Positions 1 to 33,814 of a stretch of DNA of 37,650 bases are shown one piece after another. The stretch comes from Bacteroidales bacterium. GTDB taxonomy: Bacteria > Bacteroidota > Bacteroidia > Bacteroidales > WCHB1-69. The translations under genes were made by a program, and so were the position numbers. The notes under the pieces were generated by a model. It ran no database searches. It saw nothing but the letters and a program-made list of their open reading frames with translations, and was not told where the DNA came from. The stretch spans positions 1 to 37,650 of the forward strand of contig JAIROC010000134.1 in assembly GCA_031257735.1 (NCBI GenBank), written 5' to 3'. Position 1 is the first letter of the stretch; each line of letters opens with the position of its first letter.

Positions 1-1078
1 AATTAACGGTAAGTTTTAAAGGAATACCATTAAATCGGGCTTCGAGATTTTTCTCTGTTGTAACAGTAAAAGAGTAGGAGGGGCTTTCTGAAATCTTAGT
101 CGTACCCTCATACCAGGCACCGAACAGATAAAACAAGTCAGGGGAGGCAACTACAGTAGCTGTAGTGCCGTATTCATAGGTGCCTGAACCGGAAACTGAA
201 CCACCGGGAGAACTGTTGGCTACAATAGCTATATCTACACCTTTGAACCGGGCTTCAACAGTTAAATCTCTTGTAACTGTGAACGAATATACTGGCGTAG
301 ATGAAACAATACTGTCAGCTTCCGACCAAGAATCAAATATATAGTTTTTTTCAGGCGTGGCTTTTAAAATGGCAGTTGAGCCATAGCTGTAGATACCGCT
401 GCCATCAATAGTCCCTCCTATAGTGACATTAACCAAGATGTTGAAGTCTTTCGGTTTAAACCGACAATAGATTTTTTGTTCCCCATTGAAAAAGAATGAA
501 AATTCTGTGTTTGTGCTGAGAATTTCTCCTTCTAAATCGAAAAATCCTTCAAATAAATACCCCTCATCAGGAATGGCTGTGATAGTTACTTCTTCTTCAA
601 TATTATACTTGTTTCTTACCCCTTCAACTTTTCCTCCTGAAGTAGTAATGACTTGGAATGTACCAACGTAATCTGTCCGCCGGATTTGGTGAGTGATAGT
701 TCTGGTTACAATTCCATTGTTTACGGTAAAACAAATGCTATCATCCTTAATTTCGCTCGAAATAATTTCATAAGAAATCTTTGGGAGTTCTTTGTTTGAG
801 ATAATAATTGAAGAATTCTCCTCTACGCTTGTGCTTCTTGTTTTTACATTAAAATTGTTGAGCTTAGGAATCTTCAGTTCTATGTCATTAAGGTTTCTCT
901 TATCTACATTTTTAATGGTCAGGTTGACAGGGAAAGATTCTCCTATTTCGATTTCAGATGCTGCTTCTAATGATAGGTCAAAATCATAGTCAATAATCAA
1001 ATCGCTATCGTCATTAGAGCACGAATAAAACCAGATTTGAAATAGTAATAGGAACACTAATAAAAGGCTCTTTTTCAT
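1..1078 (-). CDS. Surface lipoprotein with Listeria-Bacteroides (InlB B-repeat / Flg_new-type) repeats, 5' portion. The ORF is open to nt 1 and continues in frame at nt 37650.
   Basis: Absent from the ORF track because it has no stop in the window. Manual translation from the ATG at 1078 gives MKKSLLLVFLLLFQIWFYSCSNDD (signal peptide plus lipobox Cys). Repeat units follow, containing ...PDEGYLFEGFFD, ...PEKNYIFDSWSE and ...PDLFYLFGAWYEG. No stop codon occurs down to nt 1. Confidence 0.8.
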   Translation of the reverse strand, partial: MKKSLLLVFLLLFQIWFYSCSNDDSDLIIDYDFDLSLEAASEIEIGESFPVNLTIKNVDKRNLNDIELKIPKLNNFNVKTRSTSVEENSSIIISNKELPKISYEIISSEIKDDSICFTVNNGIVTRTITHQIRRTDYVGTFQVITTSGGKVEGVRNKYNIEEEVTITAIPDEGYLFEGFFDLEGEILSTNTEFSFFFNGEQKIYCRFKPKDFNILVNVTIGGTIDGSGIYSYGSTAILKATPEKNYIFDSWSEADSIVSSTPVYSFTVTRDLTVEARFKGVDIAIVANSSPGGSVSGSGTYEYGTTATVVASPDLFYLFGAWYEGTTKISESPSYSFTVTTEKNLEARFNGIPLKLTVN

Positions 1079-1091
1079 AATGTATACTTTT

Positions 1092-1115
1092 TAAACTTTT
1101 GAAAGCTATTCACAA
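1092..1115 (-). promoter_or_regulatory. Intergenic motif copy a (gene-sense TTGTGAATAGCTTTCAAAAGTTTA)
   Basis: Begins at the stop codon of 1110..1676 and ends 13 nt before the ATG at 1078. Shares a 24-nt stretch including the leader with copy g (1082-1105 = 30129-30152). Confidence 0.85.
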
Positions 1116-1676
1116 CAACAGTAATTTTACACCAAATCGTATGTTAGGATTAGAGTTTCTGTACTTAACTTCATAATTGGGGGAAAATGCTGCAAAAACA
1201 GAAAAACTCGAGAAATTGTATTCTACACCAATTTCGGCATTAAGACCATAAATAATCTCGTCATCACGATAATATCGTACGGATGGAGAGAATTGATCCC
1301 TATTGGTTACTTTTTGATAGCCGGTGAACGGAGCAAATGTAAGATAGGGTAGAATAGATGGAATAGGGGTATCAAAGTATTTCCTGTATCCAATAGTGGC
1401 AATGTAATACAATAGCTCGGCCCTTGTGGTCATCCCATTAAATTGCTTTCTCAGAGAAAATACAGACCCATTGATAAATAGAGCGTTTCCATTGTATAGT
1501 ATCCTCTCATACTCCATAACGCTGCCAATCCCAGTACTTCCACTAATTGAAAAACTTATGCTATTAGTGTTGTCATAGCGCTGTGCAGAAATACGACTAA
1601 TCGTTGATAATATAACCGCGATTATAAAAGTTCTTTTGTTTATGGCAAAAGATAAATATTTAAAAGCTATACACAT
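1110..1676 (-). CDS. Putative small outer-membrane beta-barrel protein (188 aa)
   Basis: Signal-like N-terminus KRTFIIAVILSTISRISAQ. Rich in Gly/Tyr/Phe/Asn with alternating strand-like segments. C-terminus ...NIRFGVKLLLL. The ATG lies inside motif copy b. Confidence 0.45.
   Translation of the reverse strand: MCIAFKYLSFAINKRTFIIAVILSTISRISAQRYDNTNSISFSISGSTGIGSVMEYERILYNGNALFINGSVFSLRKQFNGMTTRAELLYYIATIGYRKYFDTPIPSILPYLTFAPFTGYQKVTNRDQFSPSVRYYRDDEIIYGLNAEIGVEYNFSSFSVFAAFSPNYEVKYRNSNPNIRFGVKLLLL
1653..1676 (-). promoter_or_regulatory. Intergenic motif copy b (gene-sense ATGTGTATAGCTTTTAAATATTTA)
   Basis: Variant copy whose first three bases form the ATG of 1110..1676. Confidence 0.6.
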
Positions 1677-1708
1677 AAAGTTATATACATAAAAATCTAA
1701 TCATCCTA

Positions 1709-1740
1709 GCTGCTCATTAAACGTACGTTTAATGAGCAGC
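1709..1740. repeat. 32-bp perfect palindrome (left inverted-repeat candidate) with AAACGTACGT core
   Basis: GCTGCTCATTAAACGTACGTTTAATGAGCAGC equals its own reverse complement. The inner 28 bp (1711-1738) are identical to 1896-1923. Confidence 0.9.
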
Positions 1741-1863
1741 TTTTAAGCACGAGTTAACCCCTTTTTAAAGTAAAAAAAAATCATTTTTTTATAATAAAGG
1801 ATTAATCCGGAACATCCATTTTGGAGAGGCTTCGAGGCTTTTTGAAAAAAAAATATTGTAAAA

Positions 1864-1895
1864 CTTGCACTTTTTGAATAAAAAACATATTTTTG
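1864..1895 (+). promoter_or_regulatory. Bacteroides-type promoter candidate inside the palindrome-flanked segment
   Basis: TATTTTTG at 1888-1895 matches the -7 consensus TAnnTTTG exactly and abuts the right palindrome. A -33-like CTTG at 1864-1867 lies 20 nt upstream. Confidence 0.45.
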
Positions 1896-1923
1896 TGCTC
1901 ATTAAACGTACGTTTAATGAGCA
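1896..1923. repeat. 28-bp perfect palindrome (right inverted-repeat candidate), identical to 1711-1738
   Basis: TGCTCATTAAACGTACGTTTAATGAGCA, read directly from the sequence. Confidence 0.9.
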
Positions 1924-2405
1924 TGTAAAAAACAGTGACATATCGGTTGTTTGTGATACACAGCTATTAGCGTTAATAGCAGATGAAATTTGGTGATTAA
2001 CAGAAGGTTAGATAGCATTTACAAACCATGTTCTTTCTGTATATAAAATAAATCTATTGGATTTTTTTTTGTCTTTTATAGGGTGCAATTTTATTAAAAC
2101 AAAGGCATCGATATATCGTTCCTATGCCTTCTGTTCCACTTTGCTCAGAAAAAAATTACTTCAAAATGGCTTTTTTTAAAAAAACCACCAAATGGTTAAA
2201 CTATGACTAATTGTAACAAGGAGATGTTCTCACTACCGTAGGGAGTGGAATTTAGAGATGGCTTAGTCAGTTTAGCTGTGTAATAGTGTCCGCCATTAAT
2301 CCTAATAACCTAAAAAACTTAAGAAATCATCTAACAGATAATCATCTACTAGATTAACAATGCACTCTGCAGCGTAAAATCCCAAAATCCCAAATACTTC
2401 ATCAT

Positions 2406-2423
2406 ACATACTTTAGGAAAAAA
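2406..2423 (+). repeat. 18-mer ACATACTTTAGGAAAAAA, copy 1
   Basis: Exact repeat of 4267-4284. The 15-16-nt core recurs at 22199-22214 and 25248-25262. Confidence 0.85.
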
Positions 2424-2491
2424 TCACTTTAAAATTGTTTGATTAAAAAAAAGACGTAATTTTGTACGCAATAGTATGTGATTTCAAGATG

Positions 2492-2514
2492 TTATGTATA
2501 GCTTCAAATATTTA
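2492..2514 (+). promoter_or_regulatory. Intergenic motif copy n, the only plus-strand copy (TTATGTATAGCTTCAAATATTTA)
   Basis: One-base-deleted variant ending 83 nt upstream of the plus-strand phd-like/rep operon. Flanked by the direct 10-mer TAGTATGTGA at 2472-2481 and 2540-2549. Confidence 0.6.
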
Positions 2515-2597
2515 AATAAGAAATTTATTCACTAAGGAGTAGTATGTGAACGCAGGCACATCCCTTCCCCAATAGGGTTCTCCTGCTTAATGTTATC

Positions 2598-2783
2598 ATG
2601 AGAGTAATTAGTAGTTCAGAATTCCGTAAAAAAATGGGGAATTATTTAGATTTAGCAGCGAGTGAAATCATTGTTATTCATCGAGGATCGACTGAGACAT
2701 TTGTTTTAAAGCAATTGGATCGATTGCCTGATGTAGAGATAGATGTAAATGGTATATTTCGCCCTAAGAATGGAAAATCATGA
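2598..2783 (+). CDS. Phd/YefM-like antitoxin-fold small protein (61 aa)
   Basis: The N-terminus MRVISSSEFRKKMGNYLDLAASEIIVIHRGSTETFVL fits the Bacteroidetes Phd/YefM pattern (V.S.EFR....YLD......I..RG....V). Its stop overlaps the rep ATG (ATGA). Confidence 0.55.
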   Translation: MRVISSSEFRKKMGNYLDLAASEIIVIHRGSTETFVLKQLDRLPDVEIDVNGIFRPKNGKS

Positions 2784-3907
2784 CTGACCAGAAGAAAAAG
2801 ACTCCTAAAGAGAAGAAGAAAACAAAAAATGGTGAGATCGTAAAAGAAAGAAGAGGTTTGCCGAGAAATAATCTTCCTATCCAGTTACCTGATAACCATA
2901 CATGGTTGAAACAGCCGAATTTAATCACAATGCTATCTGCTGATTTTAATACTCTACACTTAAGAGTATTAATAGCTCTAATAGAGAAACTTCAGTACTC
3001 GATAGAGCAATCAGCTAATCATGTACCATATCAACAACTGTCTATTTTTCGAGAACAGACTGTTAATAACAGAATAATAATAACGATACCAATGATGGAT
3101 TTTGGTGTCAATGCCAATAACTATCCGGAACTCAGGAAAACGCTGTTACAACTTGCTACTATTCCGATAGAATTGGACGCTAAAGATCCTGTGACAGGTA
3201 CGGCAAGTTGGGCTATCTCTGGATTGTTCAAAGCCTATATTCCCAAGGAGACCCACCGGCGGACTGTTAGCTTTGAATTTGACTATGATATAGCCAGAAC
3301 TTTGGTAGATGTAGAAAAGGGATTTACCAAATACATTAAGGAAATCGCCTTTCAAACTCAAAGTAAATATACCGTAAGGATGTATATGCTTATCAGTTCG
3401 TGGAAGGATAAAGGAGGGTTTTCTATCACGTTAGAACGGTTTAAAAAATGGCTTAGATTAGAGAACAAATATCATAAATATAAAGACTTGTATAAGAGAA
3501 TTATCAAGCCCACCTACGAAGAATTATTTGAAAAAGCGAATTGTTGGTTCGAGGTAGCGGAGATATATAGAGACGGAGAATCAGAGCCTTACAAACTAAA
3601 TTTTAAAGTAGTCAGGGCTGTTTTAACTCAACAGGAAGAAGAATTTTTGAAAAATCATAAGAACAAACTGTATGACATGATGGCTCGGCAGTTTAAAATG
3701 AGTGATAAGCATATACAGAAGGTTCTTATGCATGTAACGATATCAAATGTACACCAAGCTATAAATAAAATTGTAGATTTAGCTGAATACGTTACCCAAA
3801 ATTGGAACACTATTACCAATATACCTGAATATTGTACGAAATCAATTATCGCAAAACTTATGCCAAGTGAAGGGGTAATTGGTGAAGAAAGGGGAGATGA
3901 AGATTGA
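2780..3907 (+). CDS. Plasmid replication initiator protein (Rep, iteron-type)
   Basis: 375 aa with a basic N-terminus. The segment NLITMLSADFNTLHLRVLIALIEKL is typical of Rep_3/RepB-like initiators. Iterons follow immediately. Confidence 0.7.
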   Translation: MTDQKKKTPKEKKKTKNGEIVKERRGLPRNNLPIQLPDNHTWLKQPNLITMLSADFNTLHLRVLIALIEKLQYSIEQSANHVPYQQLSIFREQTVNNRIIITIPMMDFGVNANNYPELRKTLLQLATIPIELDAKDPVTGTASWAISGLFKAYIPKETHRRTVSFEFDYDIARTLVDVEKGFTKYIKEIAFQTQSKYTVRMYMLISSWKDKGGFSITLERFKKWLRLENKYHKYKDLYKRIIKPTYEELFEKANCWFEVAEIYRDGESEPYKLNFKVVRAVLTQQEEEFLKNHKNKLYDMMARQFKMSDKHIQKVLMHVTISNVHQAINKIVDLAEYVTQNWNTITNIPEYCTKSIIAKLMPSEGVIGEERGDED

Positions 3908-3910
3908 AAA

Positions 3911-3990
3911 ACTTCTTTTTTGTCCACAAAATGAAAAATACCCAACAAATGCTCTTTTTTTGTCTCCAAAAACTTCTTTTTTTGTCTCCA
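3911..3990 (+). repeat. Iteron cluster 1 of candidate oriV (3 copies of ~19-bp (A/T)(C/G)TTCTTTTTTTGTCTCCA)
   Basis: Copies at 3911-3928 (degenerate), 3950-3968 and 3972-3990. Confidence 0.8.
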
Positions 3991-4158
3991 GATTTACAAT
4001 TCAAGATACTGATATTCAGTAATTTATATATCCATTTACAGTACTACTACTATCACTAACTGATAAATTAAACAATCTACAACCAAAAAAAACACAACAC
4101 TTTCAACTCCAAATAACACCCCCTACCTAAAATAACACCCGCACAAACACAACACAAA

Positions 4159-4260
4159 TGTTCTTTTTTTGTCTCCGAAATGAAAAAGAGCCAACAAATG
4201 CTCTTTTTTTGTCTCCAACTAATTTTTTGCAAAAACAAAAAACTTCTTTTTTTGTCTCCA
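4159..4260 (+). repeat. Iteron cluster 2 of candidate oriV (3 copies)
   Basis: Copies at 4159-4177, 4199-4217 and 4242-4260. The larger unit gtc(c/t)c(a/c)(c/g)aaatgaaaaa..ccaacaaatgctctttttttgtctcca is shared with cluster 1. Confidence 0.8.
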
Positions 4261-4266
4261 ACTAAA

Positions 4267-4284
4267 ACATACTTTAGGAAAAAA
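4267..4284 (+). repeat. 18-mer ACATACTTTAGGAAAAAA, copy 2
   Basis: Exact repeat of 2406-2423, sitting directly after the last iteron. Confidence 0.85.
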
Positions 4285-4316: not shown

Positions 4317-4919
4317 CTATTTTAAACCATTTCTTTTGGCTCGATTGGGCTCAATCCCATTTTTTCGCAAATACTTATAAATTGTTTCTAAACTTTTAAT
4401 ATTCAAAGTCTTCTGTATATTATTTAATGTATAGCCGGATTTATATAGATTGACGCAAGTCTCAATTTTAGCTTCGTGTTCTTTATTTATACTGCCTTTT
4501 GGACGTCCAAATTTTACTCCTTTCTCCTTGGCCATTCGACGACCTGCTGAAGTTCGTTCAATTATAATATCACGTTCAAATTGAGCCAATGCTCCAAGAA
4601 TGTTTGTCATTAGCTTCCCATAATGACCTTCAGTAGATATATTATCCTGAAGGGAAATAAATGTGATACCATCCTTATTAAATTTATCAAGTAGTTCAAG
4701 TACACCCCGCAATGATCGTCCAAGTCTATCTAATTTACAAACGACTATTGTATCTCCTTTGCGTATTTTTTTGAGGCACTCGTCGAATCCTGGACGATTA
4801 AACCGGGTACCGGTATATTTATCTTTAAAAATCAGTTCGCAACCATTCTTCATCAACAACTCCTCCTGAATATCCAATTTCTGTGCTGGAGTTGAAACAC
4901 GGGCATATCCTATTCGCAT
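4317..4919 (-). CDS. Serine site-specific recombinase (resolvase/invertase family, 200 aa)
   Basis: MRIGYARVSTPAQKLDIQ contains the catalytic-Ser motif. VCKLDRLGRS and a C-terminal HTH-like tail (YKSGYTLNNIQKTLNIKSLETIYKYL) are also present. Confidence 0.85.
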   Translation of the reverse strand: MRIGYARVSTPAQKLDIQEELLMKNGCELIFKDKYTGTRFNRPGFDECLKKIRKGDTIVVCKLDRLGRSLRGVLELLDKFNKDGITFISLQDNISTEGHYGKLMTNILGALAQFERDIIIERTSAGRRMAKEKGVKFGRPKGSINKEHEAKIETCVNLYKSGYTLNNIQKTLNIKSLETIYKYLRKNGIEPNRAKRNGLK

Positions 4920-4920
4920 T

Positions 4921-5802
4921 TTACTGAAGTTGTTTTAAAATAATTTGCGCCGGAATATTCATTTTAGAAAATGCGAACAATTTTTTACCTAAGTCTTTTA
5001 AGGAGGCTCCAATATGATATACTTCATCATCAATGATAATGAACCTATCATGAGAGTGTTTGTATTGTTTTATATCAACTTTTGGGTATTGACTATTATA
5101 TTTTGATAAATCCAAATTGAACTGCGTAGTTACAGTTCCGGTGTAAATAGTTGCTTTCACTCCGGAAGTACGTTTTGACAGCATAATTAGAACACTTTCG
5201 TCAACATAGTTATCTATCAACACAATGGTTTTCTTTGCCGATTTAATGAGATTTGCAGCAAATACATAAGCGTCGAATATTTGACCATCAAAGAAGACAC
5301 CTTCTACCGGAGGTAATGAAGTCCGGACGAAGAAATCTACTTTATCTTTTAATTCGCCAATTTGTTGTTGTTGTCTTATGAATTTTGCATTAACGTTATT
5401 TTCCAGTTGATTCAGTCGTTGATTGATGGAATATCCTTTTAATAAATAATCCTTTAAAATGGAATTGGACCATCGCCTGAAATTTGTTGCATTCAAAGAA
5501 TTGACACGATAACCTACTGACAAGATAGCATCAAGATTGTAGATTTTCACCTGTTGAGTTTGCGTTTTCCCATCTATAGCACCGTGAGGAGTGGTTAGTT
5601 CCAAAATGGAACATACCTCTCGTTCATTTAATTCACCTGAGCTAAAGATATTTCCCAGATGCTTGGTTATAGCAGGTCTCTTAGTTCCAAACAGTTCAGC
5701 TATCTGTGCTTGCGTCAGCCAAACTGTTTCATTTTCTAATCGAACCTCTATCTTAACCGTTTCATCCGGTCGATACAATATAATTTCTCCAAAATTCTCC
5801 AT
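4921..5802 (-). CDS. rhuM: RhuM-family protein
   Basis: The N-terminal region IILYRPDETVKIEVRLENETVWLTQAQIAELFG...ITKHLGNIF...NLDAILSVGYRVNS..ATNFRRW matches the RhuM pattern. The C-terminal half contains HDRFIIIDDEVYHIGASLKDLGKK. One base separates it from the recombinase gene. Confidence 0.65.
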   Translation of the reverse strand: MENFGEIILYRPDETVKIEVRLENETVWLTQAQIAELFGTKRPAITKHLGNIFSSGELNEREVCSILELTTPHGAIDGKTQTQQVKIYNLDAILSVGYRVNSLNATNFRRWSNSILKDYLLKGYSINQRLNQLENNVNAKFIRQQQQIGELKDKVDFFVRTSLPPVEGVFFDGQIFDAYVFAANLIKSAKKTIVLIDNYVDESVLIMLSKRTSGVKATIYTGTVTTQFNLDLSKYNSQYPKVDIKQYKHSHDRFIIIDDEVYHIGASLKDLGKKLFAFSKMNIPAQIILKQLQ

Positions 5803-5893
5803 ATAATTACGATTTAATTTTAAAATACAAATATATAATAATCGAATAAAAAACTACCTGATTTCAGATAGTTTTATTGCACTTTAATTTTAT

Positions 5894-5917
5894 TCGATTT
5901 AATTATAATTAAATCGA
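5894..5917. promoter_or_regulatory. 24-bp perfect palindrome TCGATTTAATTATAATTAAATCGA (operator or res-site candidate)
   Basis: Lies ~90 nt upstream of the rhuM/recombinase operon. A related sequence, AATCGAATAA, lies at 5841-5850. Confidence 0.4.
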
Positions 5918-6119
5918 AATACAAGGAAACCGCATATCAATCCCATTAATATGTTATCTGATCATCATCAGATACATTCCCGGTTTCCATCTCTATACGG
6001 AGTTTCCTTTCAGGTTTTTTAGCCTGAATTCTATCCGCTACAGGCTTATATATTTCAAATGATTCTCTAAACATGGCATGTTACTTGTCGATATTGTTTT
6101 AATTCTTTTATCTAAAATT

Positions 6120-6907: not shown

Positions 6908-7432
6908 TTAAAAACTTGCACAACGCACGGATGTGCCGAGAACCCCCTGAGTGTAGTCGAAACTCAAAGTAATATAGCTACTGCTGAAGTCTAAGGTGCA
7001 AATATAATTGTCTACAATCGTAGCGCTACAGTAATAACCGTAAATACCAACTTCCTCTAACCGTTCATCGCTGTTACTCCTGATACCCGCCGCTGGAAAG
7101 AATATCTCCATCACATCGCCTTCCACTTTATCAAACGTGATCCACATACCTTTCCCGTTATCATCCCATCTACACGGGAGAGATGTAATAAACTCCTGTT
7201 CTTCATGAGTCAGCAATCGTTTATCTTGCTTTTTTGCAGCTATTGAGGCGTTCTGATGACTGAAGTGCTGCTCGCCTGCGTGAATCCTACCGTCCGGAAT
7301 CTCATATTCACTAGTAGCTCTGTTGCACATGGCGAGTTCGGCATCTTTCAGATTCTCCATATCTAACCATATAGGCTGACCACAAATCAGCACATGAACA
7401 GCATTCGTACGTGATTCATTTTTTTGTTTCAT
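6908..7432 (-). CDS. Protein with a C-terminal FISUMP-like (Fibrobacter succinogenes major paralogous) domain, no signal peptide
   Basis: FFPAAGIRSNSDERLEEVGIYGYYCSAT...GTSVRCASF matches the FPAAGxR...G.YGYYWSST...G.SVRC pattern. It starts 5 nt after the parA stop. Confidence 0.5.
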   Translation of the reverse strand: MKQKNESRTNAVHVLICGQPIWLDMENLKDAELAMCNRATSEYEIPDGRIHAGEQHFSHQNASIAAKKQDKRLLTHEEQEFITSLPCRWDDNGKGMWITFDKVEGDVMEIFFPAAGIRSNSDERLEEVGIYGYYCSATIVDNYICTLDFSSSYITLSFDYTQGVLGTSVRCASF

Positions 7433-7436
7433 CGTT

Positions 7437-8129
7437 TTAATTATCTTTTATATGATTAATTATTGTTTCTAATATTTCCTCGCATAATGCTGTATTTGCT
7501 TCATTTTCTTCTGTTATGCCGGTCGTTGTAATATTGCGCTGATAGGCAACAGAAGAATCTTTTATATAGCTATCTAAAACAGAATAAGGTAGCTCACTTT
7601 TTTGTGCATATAGCTGTTTAAATTCAAGAAGTTGTGGTTTTACACGATTCATCACTGCAGCAACGGTTGTTTTGTAATTTAATTTTTTTCTAATAGTTAT
7701 TATTTTGTTCTGCAATAGTTCGTAAAATTGTGCTGTTGAATCTATATCGAACTCATTTGGTTGGAATGGAATAATATAAATATCGATCATATAATAGGAA
7801 GTAATAACTCCTTCTTGCATCATGTTTCCTGGGAGATCTAAGAGTATAATATCATAACTGTCTTGTAGAAACTCAATATTATCTTTTACATCAGAAGAAG
7901 ATATTTGGATGATCTTATAAGATTCAACATTTTCTCCACCTTCTCGCTGCCTTTTTCTATATAAGGTTTGTTGCCTATCATCAGCATCAATGACAGCGAC
8001 ATTTAGCCCTTGTTTTTTTCCTTCAGTGAAAAGATAATTTGCGAAAATTGAGGTTAAGGTTGACTTTCCTACCCCACCTTTTTGGTTTGCAAATGATACA
8101 ACCAACCCCGGATTAAATATTTGTCCCAT
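7437..8129 (-). CDS. parA: ParA/Soj-family partition ATPase (TraA-like in Bacteroides nomenclature)
   Basis: Deviant Walker A NQKGGVGKST and Walker B-like IILLDLPG. Confidence 0.85.
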   Translation of the reverse strand: MGQIFNPGLVVSFANQKGGVGKSTLTSIFANYLFTEGKKQGLNVAVIDADDRQQTLYRKRQREGGENVESYKIIQISSSDVKDNIEFLQDSYDIILLDLPGNMMQEGVITSYYMIDIYIIPFQPNEFDIDSTAQFYELLQNKIITIRKKLNYKTTVAAVMNRVKPQLLEFKQLYAQKSELPYSVLDSYIKDSSVAYQRNITTTGITEENEANTALCEEILETIINHIKDN

Positions 8130-8766: not shown

Positions 8767-10247
8767 TTGCGAAATTTGATAAAAAACCTTTTAGTAGTTC
8801 TGCTCTATCATTTAAAGTTGATTACCATACCAAAAAAATAGAAGCAGGTAAAGGAGAGTTTTTGTATTCTTCGGTTGTGAATAGTTTTTCTGACTTTACT
8901 GATGTGGCTCATCAGGTTGCCGGTTTAAATGAAAGGGTAAAATATCCCTTTCACGAGGTAAGTTTAAATCTCCCTAAGGGTGAATCATTAGATGATGACA
9001 GGTTTATTGAGATTGCAAAAGATTTTATGAAAAAAATGAAGTATGATAATACTGCCTACTCTATTATTCGTCATACGGACAAAGAACATGAGCATATTCA
9101 TATTCTATTTACTACTGTTGATCTTGAAGGAAAGAAGGTCGATAGATTTAATGAGAGGCGGAGAAGTCAGCAGGCTTCCAGGGAGCTGGAACAGAAATAC
9201 ACCCTTAAAGAAACGGTTTATAATAAATTTGATAAGAATACGTTTTCTGAGATAAAGGCCAGGGAGTATTATTTTCATAATGCACTTGTTAAAGGGTTAA
9301 AGTCATACCAATATGAAGTTATATTGAATGAAAAGTTGGATGGTACTATACTATCAAATATTGGCGATAGAAGCCTTACCAACTCCGAATGTGAAGTTAT
9401 TTTAGGTACAGCTCTTTATGATGAGATAGGTTCCATTTTGGACATGGGTAACTTCTTCAACAAATTATTTAAAGATGAACTTCTTTCTATTATGGATAAT
9501 AGTTTTTTGGAAAGTAAAAGCTTTGTTTCATTTAAAAAGCTATTGGCTGATCAGGGTGTATATATGAGATTAGTTAGTGATAAGGGCCAATCAAAATATG
9601 TATATGGGTTATCGAATGTTCCTATATATTTCAATGATACAACTTTACCTAAGAGATACCGGTACGGAGAGATTACTTCTCTTAAATGGAATGAAAGATT
9701 GAATGTGGAGGTTGATCAGAAGGAGGTGGGCGGTTCTGCGCTCCTTTCCACCGGTACAACAAACATAGAATTATCTGCTGATGAACAGAAACATGTAATT
9801 TACAACTTGGTTTACCTGGCATTACACAATTCTGATAATTATGAAGAATTTAGTAGTAAGTTGAAATATGGTAATGTGTTTTTAGAGGAGCATAAAAACT
9901 CGAAAGGGGTGTATGGATTGTCTCTCACTTTATCTTCGGTAGGAAATCCAGTAACATTTAAAGCATCAGATGTTTCTAAGAATCTTAGTTACCCAGCTAT
10001 TAACAGGTATTTTACTTCGATTGAAAATCCAATCAGTCGGGTTGCTAATGATACAGGTGTGATAAAAAGCATAGCTGAGGATACGAATAAATATATACCT
10101 TTGTTTTCTCAGTTGGCATTATCGCTTATGCTATCCGGAAGTGACCGGTACGATAGGGAATTAGAAAGAGAAGAAGAGGACAATCAGGAAAGAGACGATT
10201 TGAAAAAGAAGAAAAAGAAAAAAAATATGAATATTCATAAAAACTAA
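8763..10247 (+). CDS. Relaxase / mobilisation nuclease
   Basis: Histidine-triad motif IIRHTDKEHEHIHILFTTVD (HxDx3HxHxH). A Lys-rich C-terminal tail is also present. Confidence 0.8.
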   Translation: MIAKFDKKPFSSSALSFKVDYHTKKIEAGKGEFLYSSVVNSFSDFTDVAHQVAGLNERVKYPFHEVSLNLPKGESLDDDRFIEIAKDFMKKMKYDNTAYSIIRHTDKEHEHIHILFTTVDLEGKKVDRFNERRRSQQASRELEQKYTLKETVYNKFDKNTFSEIKAREYYFHNALVKGLKSYQYEVILNEKLDGTILSNIGDRSLTNSECEVILGTALYDEIGSILDMGNFFNKLFKDELLSIMDNSFLESKSFVSFKKLLADQGVYMRLVSDKGQSKYVYGLSNVPIYFNDTTLPKRYRYGEITSLKWNERLNVEVDQKEVGGSALLSTGTTNIELSADEQKHVIYNLVYLALHNSDNYEEFSSKLKYGNVFLEEHKNSKGVYGLSLTLSSVGNPVTFKASDVSKNLSYPAINRYFTSIENPISRVANDTGVIKSIAEDTNKYIPLFSQLALSLMLSGSDRYDRELEREEEDNQERDDLKKKKKKKNMNIHKN

Positions 10248-33743: not shown

Positions 33744-33779
33744 ACTTGTTTTAATTTAATGTTTTCAATACAACAAAGA

Positions 33780-33803
33780 TAAACATTTGAAAACTATACA
33801 CAA
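33780..33803 (-). promoter_or_regulatory. Intergenic motif copy k (TTGTGTATAGTTTTCAAATGTTTA)
   Basis: Lies 11 nt after the stop at 33815 and is followed by TATCTTTG, an exact TAnnTTTG. It ends 36 nt upstream of the ATG at 33743. Confidence 0.85.
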
Positions 33804-33814
33804 CAACGCCAGCA

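Follow-up and report, generated by a model that had tools for sequence, protein, structure and literature searches.

What is a pair of identical palindromes doing in front of a long array of surface-protein genes? This question is raised by a 37,650-nucleotide stretch of Bacteroidales DNA (contig JAIROC010000134.1; the whole stretch is referred to here as the window), which is a circularly permuted, complete 37.65-kb conjugative plasmid of the Bacteroidota. An earlier note, made from the letters of this DNA, had proposed that the palindromes bound an invertible promoter (inverton) of the type that the serine recombinase Mpi flips in Bacteroides fragilis, and we found this idea well supported by the family to which the sites belong, the size of the element, the promoter inside it, the lack of a promoter box in front of the gene that faces it, and the recurrence of the same cassette in other genomes. 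We consider it probable that the 213 bp at 1711-1923 form an Mpi-class invertible promoter cassette, caught pointing away from the surface-protein operon, that is, in the OFF state.

Two identical palindromes flank a short segment with promoter motifs

The 28-bp sequence TGCTCATTAAACGTACGTTTAATGAGCA occurs exactly twice in the window, at 1711..1738 and 1896..1923, and each copy is a perfect palindrome, such that the pair scores as a direct and an inverted repeat at once; in all this the earlier note was accurate. No third copy was found in the window with up to three mismatches allowed, and none of 100 shuffled sequences contained any match. The left site, which is predicted to be the promoter-distal recombination site, is centered between 1724 and 1725, consists of two Mpi-like half-sites TGCTCATTAAACGT, and continues as a palindrome to 34 bp (1708-1741). 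The identical right site, predicted to be the promoter-proximal one, is centered between 1909 and 1910. Matches to the motif ARACGTWCGT, which the earlier note had given as the Mpi consensus, occur in the window only at these two palindromes (chance expectation 0.13), and the core AAACGTACGT can be read on either strand of each repeat but at no other place in the window. Between the sites lie 157 bp (1739..1895), predicted to invert together with the inner half-sites, with a GC content of 26.8% compared to 36.9% for the window.

A TTTG at -33 is the consensus of Bacteroides promoters, and the segment carries a -33 region, AAACTTGCAC, at 1861..1870 on the plus strand (family consensus AAAATTTGCAC). 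Directly against the right palindrome, at 1888..1895 on the plus strand, is the -7 box TATTTTTG, which the earlier note had also located; it matches the Bacteroides -7 consensus TAnnTTTG (PMC4747536) and reads rightwards as sequenced. Both blocks are conserved among nine cassettes that we aligned (see below), as is a third block, CCGGAACATCC at 1807..1817 on the plus strand (family consensus CCGRAACGCCC), which could be an accessory-factor or UP-like element. The predicted transcription start of this candidate promoter falls inside the right palindrome. At the other end of the cassette, the left palindrome and the TTTT that follows it fold into a hairpin (1708..1745, plus strand; 15-bp stem, -22.9 kcal/mol), and this inner flank, a stem plus CTTTT, is kept in all related cassettes. 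Judging from its fold, the hairpin may act as a terminator or insulator ahead of the cassette promoter; a consensus terminator scan of 1000-3000 found nothing. The cassette also holds a 19-nt direct repeat (1838-1856 and 1870-1888, CTTTTTGAAAAAAAAATAT and CTTTTTGAATAAAAAACAT; spacing 32), with the copies flanking the -33 element.

The element sits in a 920-bp gap (1677-2597) between the minus-strand array and plus-strand phd-like and rep genes. The first gene of the array, and of the surface-protein operon, is at 1110..1676 on the minus strand and encodes a β-strand-rich protein of 188 amino acids (aa) with no family match: a Pfam scan at E ≤ 10 returned nothing, DUF3575 included. Its ATG at 1676 is 34 nt from the left repeat, not 33 nt as first reported, and this spacer (1677-1710) contains no TAnnTTTG box. 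The gap as a whole has only two such boxes, that of the cassette and one at 2457-2464, both on the plus strand. The absence of the motif suggests that the surface-protein operon may depend on the cassette for its promoter.

The sites and layout resemble those of published Mpi-type invertons

Mpi inverts 13 regions in B. fragilis, among them seven polysaccharide (PS) promoters (PMC4747536). Tables S1/S2 of Carasso et al. 2024 (PMC10939037) list invertible regions that had to be supported by at least 20 reads and a mean reverse ratio of 1% or more in PhaseFinder, and we compared the window with entries in those tables. For the capsule promoters of B. fragilis NCTC 9343, the inverted repeat (IR) given is TGTTTCAAAAAACGTTCGT for upaY, upbY, upeY and uphY (206-231 bp), AGTGTTTCAATAGACGTTCGTTTAA for upfY (237 bp), AAACGTTCGTCTATTTGAAC for upgY (214 bp), and TGTTTCAATAGACGATCGTCTA for updY (233 bp). 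Listed regions of B. fragilis outside the capsule loci include one near an ABC transporter (IR ATGTGTTTTTA[A/G]ACGTACGTTTA, 233 bp), one near a fimbrillin gene (IR TGTTTCAAAAGACGTTCGTCT, 161 bp), and a further one with IR AATGATGTTTCAAAAGACGTACGTCT (171 bp), and a B. eggerthii region with IR TGTTTTTTAAACGTTCGTTT (227 bp) lies beside DUF3575 and FimB/Mfa2 genes. The seven PS-promoter IRs of these tables fit or nearly fit ARACGTWCGT. As a literal string, the motif given in the earlier note appears in no paper of the literature searched.

The window shares with the Mpi invertible promoters of B. fragilis (PSA-PSH and other surface loci) the IR core A[A/G]ACGT[A/T]CGT, and the likeness extends beyond the core: the published half-site TCAxxAAACGT compares with TGTTTCAAAAAACGT in the window, and the window half-site GTGCTCATTAAACGTACGT is recognizably related to the published IR TGTTTCAAAAAACGTTCGT. 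The 213 bp of the window element fall within the 161-237 bp of the Mpi-type regions taken from the tables. In both systems a -7 TAnnTTTG lies inside the element and reads out through one repeat, the gene facing the element has no promoter box of its own, and the cargo consists of surface structures. The window differs from the B. fragilis loci in that it is a conjugative plasmid rather than a chromosome, its operon has no UpxY or UpxZ, no Mpi-family invertase is encoded nearby, and its two sites are perfect 28-bp palindromes identical to each other; beyond the core, the published Mpi IRs are asymmetric.

The crossover sites of the Hin, Gin and Cin systems (hix/gix) are also dyad-symmetric and ~26-28 bp long; each is bound by a recombinase dimer, and the segment between inverted sites flips. 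These sites have an asymmetric central dinucleotide, and the systems use kilobase-sized segments and a Fis-bound enhancer. The window is similar to them in the size and dyad symmetry of its sites, but its center is a symmetric TA and its segment is only 157 bp.

Closer in setting is pMMCAT, a large Bacteroidales conjugative plasmid with Mfa-like fimbriae genes on which promoter inversion controls phase-variable surface functions (bioRxiv 10.1101/2024.04.29.590671). On pMMCAT, a tyrosine recombinase adjacent to the invertons flips them, and they control an EPS (exopolysaccharide) locus; the mfa locus is under a LuxR-type regulator (bioRxiv 10.1101/2024.04.29.590671). In contrast, the window has sites of the serine (Mpi) type without a cognate invertase next to them. 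Since invertons on Bacteroidales mobile elements are already known, as are Mpi-type sites beside fimbrial genes on chromosomes, the present case extends an established theme; what sets it apart is that the sites are fully symmetric and that the plasmid encodes no cognate enzyme.

The same cassette recurs at other loci with the promoter pointing outward

A search for the 20-bp core CATTAAACGTACGTTTAATG in one genome per species yielded 15 loci, and a search of metagenomes yielded nine additional ones. Across these relatives, the center-to-center spacing of the paired sites is 177-201 bp. In Bacteroides sp. GD17 (L014, also L021), one arm is CATTAAACGTACGTTTAATG and the other is AGACGTACGTTT, spaced 201 bp apart. 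At a distance of 192 nt downstream of the pair is a gene whose product fits the UpxY model NF033644 (169 bits, cut-off 100), followed by an UpxZ-sized gene. Judged by these predicted neighbors, the pair sits where invertible promoters of capsule loci are canonically found. In B. hominis and human-gut contigs (L001, L015, L018-L020, L022-L026), CATTAAACGTACGTTTAATG is paired with TTTAAACGTACGTTTAAA at a distance of 188 bp, between divergent genes of a glycosyltransferase locus. The interior of the window cassette is unrelated to those of the B. hominis and GD17 cassettes.

The closest relatives are in contigs of metagenome-assembled genomes (MAGs) assigned to Mediterranea, Tannerella and Prevotellaceae (L002-L013; at least 10 loci), where the pairs are spaced 177-189 bp apart. 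Here the whole cassette is homologous to window positions 1708-1924 at ~70% identity, including the interior (1739-1895; compared with L002, L005, L007, L008, L011 and L012), and the 20-bp core is identical. The surroundings are not shared: the MAG cassettes adjoin SusC/SusD genes instead of a plasmid operon, their flanks are unrelated to those of the window, and the outer flank on the promoter-proximal side, conserved among the MAG cassettes for 24-150 nt, has no counterpart in the window. These MAG cassettes are themselves putative invertons.

In an alignment of nine cassettes, the order of elements was constant: the distal palindrome, CTTTT and a G-run, an A-tract, CCGRAACGCCC, the -33 element AAAATTTGCAC, AATAAAA, the -7 box TAnnTTTG, and the proximal palindrome. 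In every aligned cassette the promoter reads outward through the proximal palindrome. We also examined the loci in which the 5′ end of a gene faces the promoter-distal palindrome, namely the window, the upxY locus (L014) and four SusC loci (L002, L003, L005 and L008), and found that the coding-strand spacer lacks a TAnnTTTG box in all six. A promoter that points outward, together with a facing gene that has no predicted box of its own, is the layout of an inverton in the OFF state.

Several MAG loci carry peculiarities of their own. In L005, the proximal palindrome (7320-7345) lacks exactly its central 10 bp (AAACGTACGT); the distal palindrome of L006 (3427-3450) has its outer half replaced right at the dyad center, which is where a serine recombinase would cut. 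Such degenerate sites resemble switches that have become locked in nature, or the outcome of aberrant recombination. In L002, from a Prevotellaceae MAG, the two outer flanks of the cassette (7538-7573 and 7726-7765) are inverted repeats (AACTACAAAAGCTGC... and ...GCAGCTTTTCGTGGTT), and the flank downstream of the promoter resembles the flank beside the distal site in L003 and L010. This cassette may toggle between two operons. Finally, ~130 nt downstream of the promoter-proximal palindrome are conserved at 84-92% identity in four MAG loci (L006 3081-3238, L007 7480-7640, L010 4210-4379 and L011 3390-3515, on the minus strand of each), and in three of the four (L006, L007 and L010) this stretch ends in a GC-rich stem followed by T7. 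The stretch could encode a small RNA produced while the cassette is OFF; Rfam gave no match for it, and a search of the window and 14 loci against Rfam found nothing at the cassettes.

Inversion would place the promoter in front of the surface-protein operon

If the palindromes act as Mpi-type sites, each would be a crossover site made of two half-sites and bound by a serine invertase dimer, and strand exchange at the central TA would invert 1725-1909. The inverted allele would have the junctions ...AATGAGCA|CAAAAATATG... and ...CTTAAAAGC|TGCTCATT... When we inverted 1725-1909 in silico, the -7 box came to lie on the minus strand (1746-1739), with 62 nt between it and the downstream ATG at 1676. 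From there the promoter would fire leftwards through the left palindrome, and transcription would enter the genes for the outer-membrane protein, the lipoprotein and the Mfa-like fimbrillin. The end of the cassette with the hairpin and TTTT also moves across upon in silico inversion and thus stays upstream of the promoter in both states; it would probably insulate the promoter from read-through. The enzyme envisaged is a host-encoded master invertase of the Mpi family that would flip the cassette in trans.

Host-encoded or plasmid-encoded invertase

The earlier note had assigned the flipping to a 200-aa serine recombinase that the plasmid encodes at 4317-4919. The gene is real, with resolvase and HTH_7 domains, and there are arguments for its action in cis: it lies 2.4 kb from the cassette, it is the only recombinase among the plasmid ORFs scanned, and its res half-site TTCGATTTAATTA and the half-site of the palindromes have in common a loose C..TTAA pattern. 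Its role as an Mpi-like invertase, however, is not supported. On the Mpi family model NF009949 the protein scores 67.3 bits, against a cut-off of 272, and upstream of its own operon is what appears to be its cognate site, which differs from the palindromes in motif (TWCGATTTA) and in arrangement. Recombinase-motif subsites beside the recombinase gene, as expected of a res site, are present at 5806-5918 and not at the 1711 and 1896 palindromes. The same arrangement is collinear upstream of the recombinase homologues in L027 (80%; ~4061-4179) and L028 (61%; 9871-9993), loci that have no ARACGTWCGT sites within 10 kb; conversely, the cassette loci in MAGs and Bacteroides encode no nearby homologue of the recombinase. 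We therefore think it improbable that this enzyme flips the cassette, and on these comparisons we assign it a predicted role in plasmid multimer resolution, with autoregulation. Since the plasmid recombinase falls outside the Mpi family and has a res-like site of its own, any flipping is probably the work of a host-encoded Mpi-family invertase acting in trans, by analogy with Mpi on dispersed chromosomal sites.

With respect to the res-like cluster itself, we note that it lies directly upstream of the operon of a RhuM gene (4921-5802) and the recombinase gene. It comprises a 26-bp perfect palindrome, TTCGATTTAATTA|TAATTAAATCGAA (5893-5918), with the motif TWCGATTTA, and a second, wider-spaced pair of TWCGATTTA motifs around a -7 box, TATATTTG (5835-5828, minus strand). 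L028, a plasmid-like contig, additionally carries a 28-bp inverted repeat (2853-2880 and 3122-3149) with 96% complementary arms and 241 nt between them, which may be an unrelated inverton.

Orientation of the cassette and alternatives to inversion

Several observations weigh against an invertible cassette on this plasmid. No Mpi-family invertase is encoded there, as described above. The consensus assemblies showed no inverted allele: the 37.65-kb contig and two Logan contigs, L016 and L017, share one orientation, and because L017 continues through the right palindrome without interruption, the arrangement as sequenced is the prevailing one there. Orientation is likewise uniform across the 11 assemblies of the B. 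hominis-type locus and across the two of the upxY locus, and the promoter of every MAG cassette lies next to the same conserved flank. Exact-protein look-ups place the plasmid on record from one sample only, and at 15 loci with Rep homologues (64-66% identity) the cassette was present in neither orientation, which leaves no comparison within the lineage. Moreover, perfect dyad symmetry gives the sites no intrinsic polarity, and a 185-bp deletion would be chemically as possible as inversion. A single orientation does not refute switching, because consensus assemblies show the majority state only. The concern about deletion, which the earlier note had raised from the symmetric GTAC at the site center, is eased: sites with W=A and the same symmetric TA center occur among the read-supported invertible regions listed in PMC10939037, and thus such a center is no bar to inversion in vivo.

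Two apparent signs of flipping were set aside. A break of a Logan contig at the left repeat was rejected as evidence, because the 34-bp palindrome exceeds k=31. MAG contigs that end 72-95 nt inside cassettes were not used as an inversion signature, since k-1 overhangs into a multi-copy repeat fit them at least equally well.

The chief alternative is that the promoter is static and permanently serves 1924-2597 and rep, with the palindromes acting as an operator for a dimeric repressor of the host or the plasmid, a 5′ RNA hairpin or an upstream terminator. This would account for the single orientation in every assembly examined, for the strong terminator-like hairpin at the left palindrome, and for the overlap of the right palindrome with the predicted transcription start, a classic operator position; it would also suit the conservation of ~24 nt past the promoter-proximal palindrome in MAG loci and the 130-nt stretch, resembling a small RNA, in four of them. 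But a static promoter leaves the facing genes (SusC, upxY and the 188-aa gene) with no consensus promoter in six of six cases, and the core belongs to the crossover-site family of read-verified invertons, including capsule promoters. Furthermore, the T-run follows the left palindrome on the plus strand only and is missing after the right one, and an operator does not explain why paired sites recur at a constant ~185-bp spacing with the promoter always inside. We regard this alternative as unlikely. Less likely still is that the element is a substrate for deletion or resolution, or a mobile promoter cassette resembling a miniature inverted-repeat transposable element (MITE), whether through excision, dimer resolution or insertion of a 213-bp module. 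The perfectly symmetric sites with a TA center would permit deletion, the cassette is multi-copy within MAGs in unrelated contexts, as though it had spread as a module, and Rep-related plasmids are without it. However, none of the 24 loci showed a single-site scar that retains both outer flanks, the plasmid already has its separate res-like site, the element flanks (...CATCCTAGC and TGTAAAAAAC...) share no target-site duplication of the kind looked for in a MITE-like element, and modular spread is equally typical of bona fide Bacteroides invertons. Because Rep-related plasmids are without the cassette, we conclude that it is a module recruited by this plasmid lineage. A megablast search of PLSDB with 1000-4000 gave no match, and neither the palindrome nor Rep gave a hit in IMG/VR.

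Extent of control and consequences of switching

As the earlier note described, the genes from the 188-aa gene onward are on the minus strand across the circle join down to 10560, and the 691-aa lipoprotein ORF continues seamlessly over the window ends. The plasmid encodes a Rep3 initiator, ParA, a MobC/relaxase, a coupling protein and TraG-, TraM- and TraN-type proteins of a type IV secretion system (T4SS), as well as a single-stranded DNA-binding protein (SSB), a methylase-helicase, Mfa-like fimbrillins, and lipoproteins with Flg_new/BACON repeats. The fimbrillins and the Flg_new/BACON lipoproteins of the operon are typical phase-variable cargo, which counts in favor of an invertible promoter.

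The proposal that the cassette controls the whole 29-kb array, transfer genes included, is doubtful. A candidate promoter, TATCTTTG, with a -33 TTTG, is present at 33781-33774 on the minus strand, in a 72-bp gap (33744-33814) before the gene for a 608-aa Mfa-like fimbrillin. Its motifs suggest that the minus-strand array is more than one transcription unit, and because of this internal candidate, control by the cassette may end before the transfer genes. The switch may govern six genes only, encoding the 188-aa protein, the 691-aa lipoprotein, a 90-aa protein, a 302-aa Mfa-like protein, a 269-aa protein and a 250-aa Flg_new protein, with ssb, the T4SS and the coupling protein outside its control. 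The regulon is thus probably narrower than first proposed.

We suggest, as a tentative and rather doubtful extension, that the plasmid borrows the master invertase of its host, with surface and adhesion functions, and possibly transfer, wired into the phase-variation network of the host, and that one promoter toggles between the surface operon and the rep side. The idea of a toggle arises because the sites are fully symmetric and the cassette lies between divergent units. If the toggle is real, the population would contain subpopulations devoted to display and transfer or to maintenance, with an occasional irreversible loss of the promoter by the 185-bp deletion. If the cassette flips at all, the adhesin and fimbrial genes of a conjugative plasmid would be expressed in only a fraction of the host cells; since switching would need a host enzyme, the behavior of the plasmid would vary with the invertase repertoire of its host.

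The comparison also defines a portable cassette: chromosomes of human-gut Bacteroides, several Bacteroidales MAGs and a plasmid all carry the same 20-bp palindromic core, letter for letter. Searching with this core could uncover Mpi-type switches that repeat finders may overlook or mis-score, since each arm is its own reverse complement.

The region between the cassette and the replication genes

As sequenced, the cassette promoter is predicted to transcribe 1924..2597 on the plus strand. This region contains no ORF of at least 60 aa, as had been observed for the ~670 bp downstream of the cassette, and no convincing terminator, and it leads to a second candidate promoter, TAATTTTG at 2457-2464 with a -33 TTTG, followed by the phd-like and rep3 genes. 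From its motifs and position, TAATTTTG is probably the rep promoter. Because there is no convincing terminator before it, the cassette transcript may add to rep transcription, although we offer this as speculation.

We also considered whether 1924-2597 could be the origin of replication (oriV), and rejected it. About seven direct repeats of CTTCTTTTTTTGTCTCC lie directly downstream of the Rep3 gene, at 3907-4272, and these are probably the iterons of oriV; therefore, the region upstream of rep is not the origin. The 61-aa phd-like ORF at 2598-2783 has a weak match to the Phd/YefM antitoxin family (22.9 bits, below the cut-off), no toxin partner, and a 4-nt overlap with the rep start codon. Rather than an antitoxin, its product may be a Cop-like repressor of rep.

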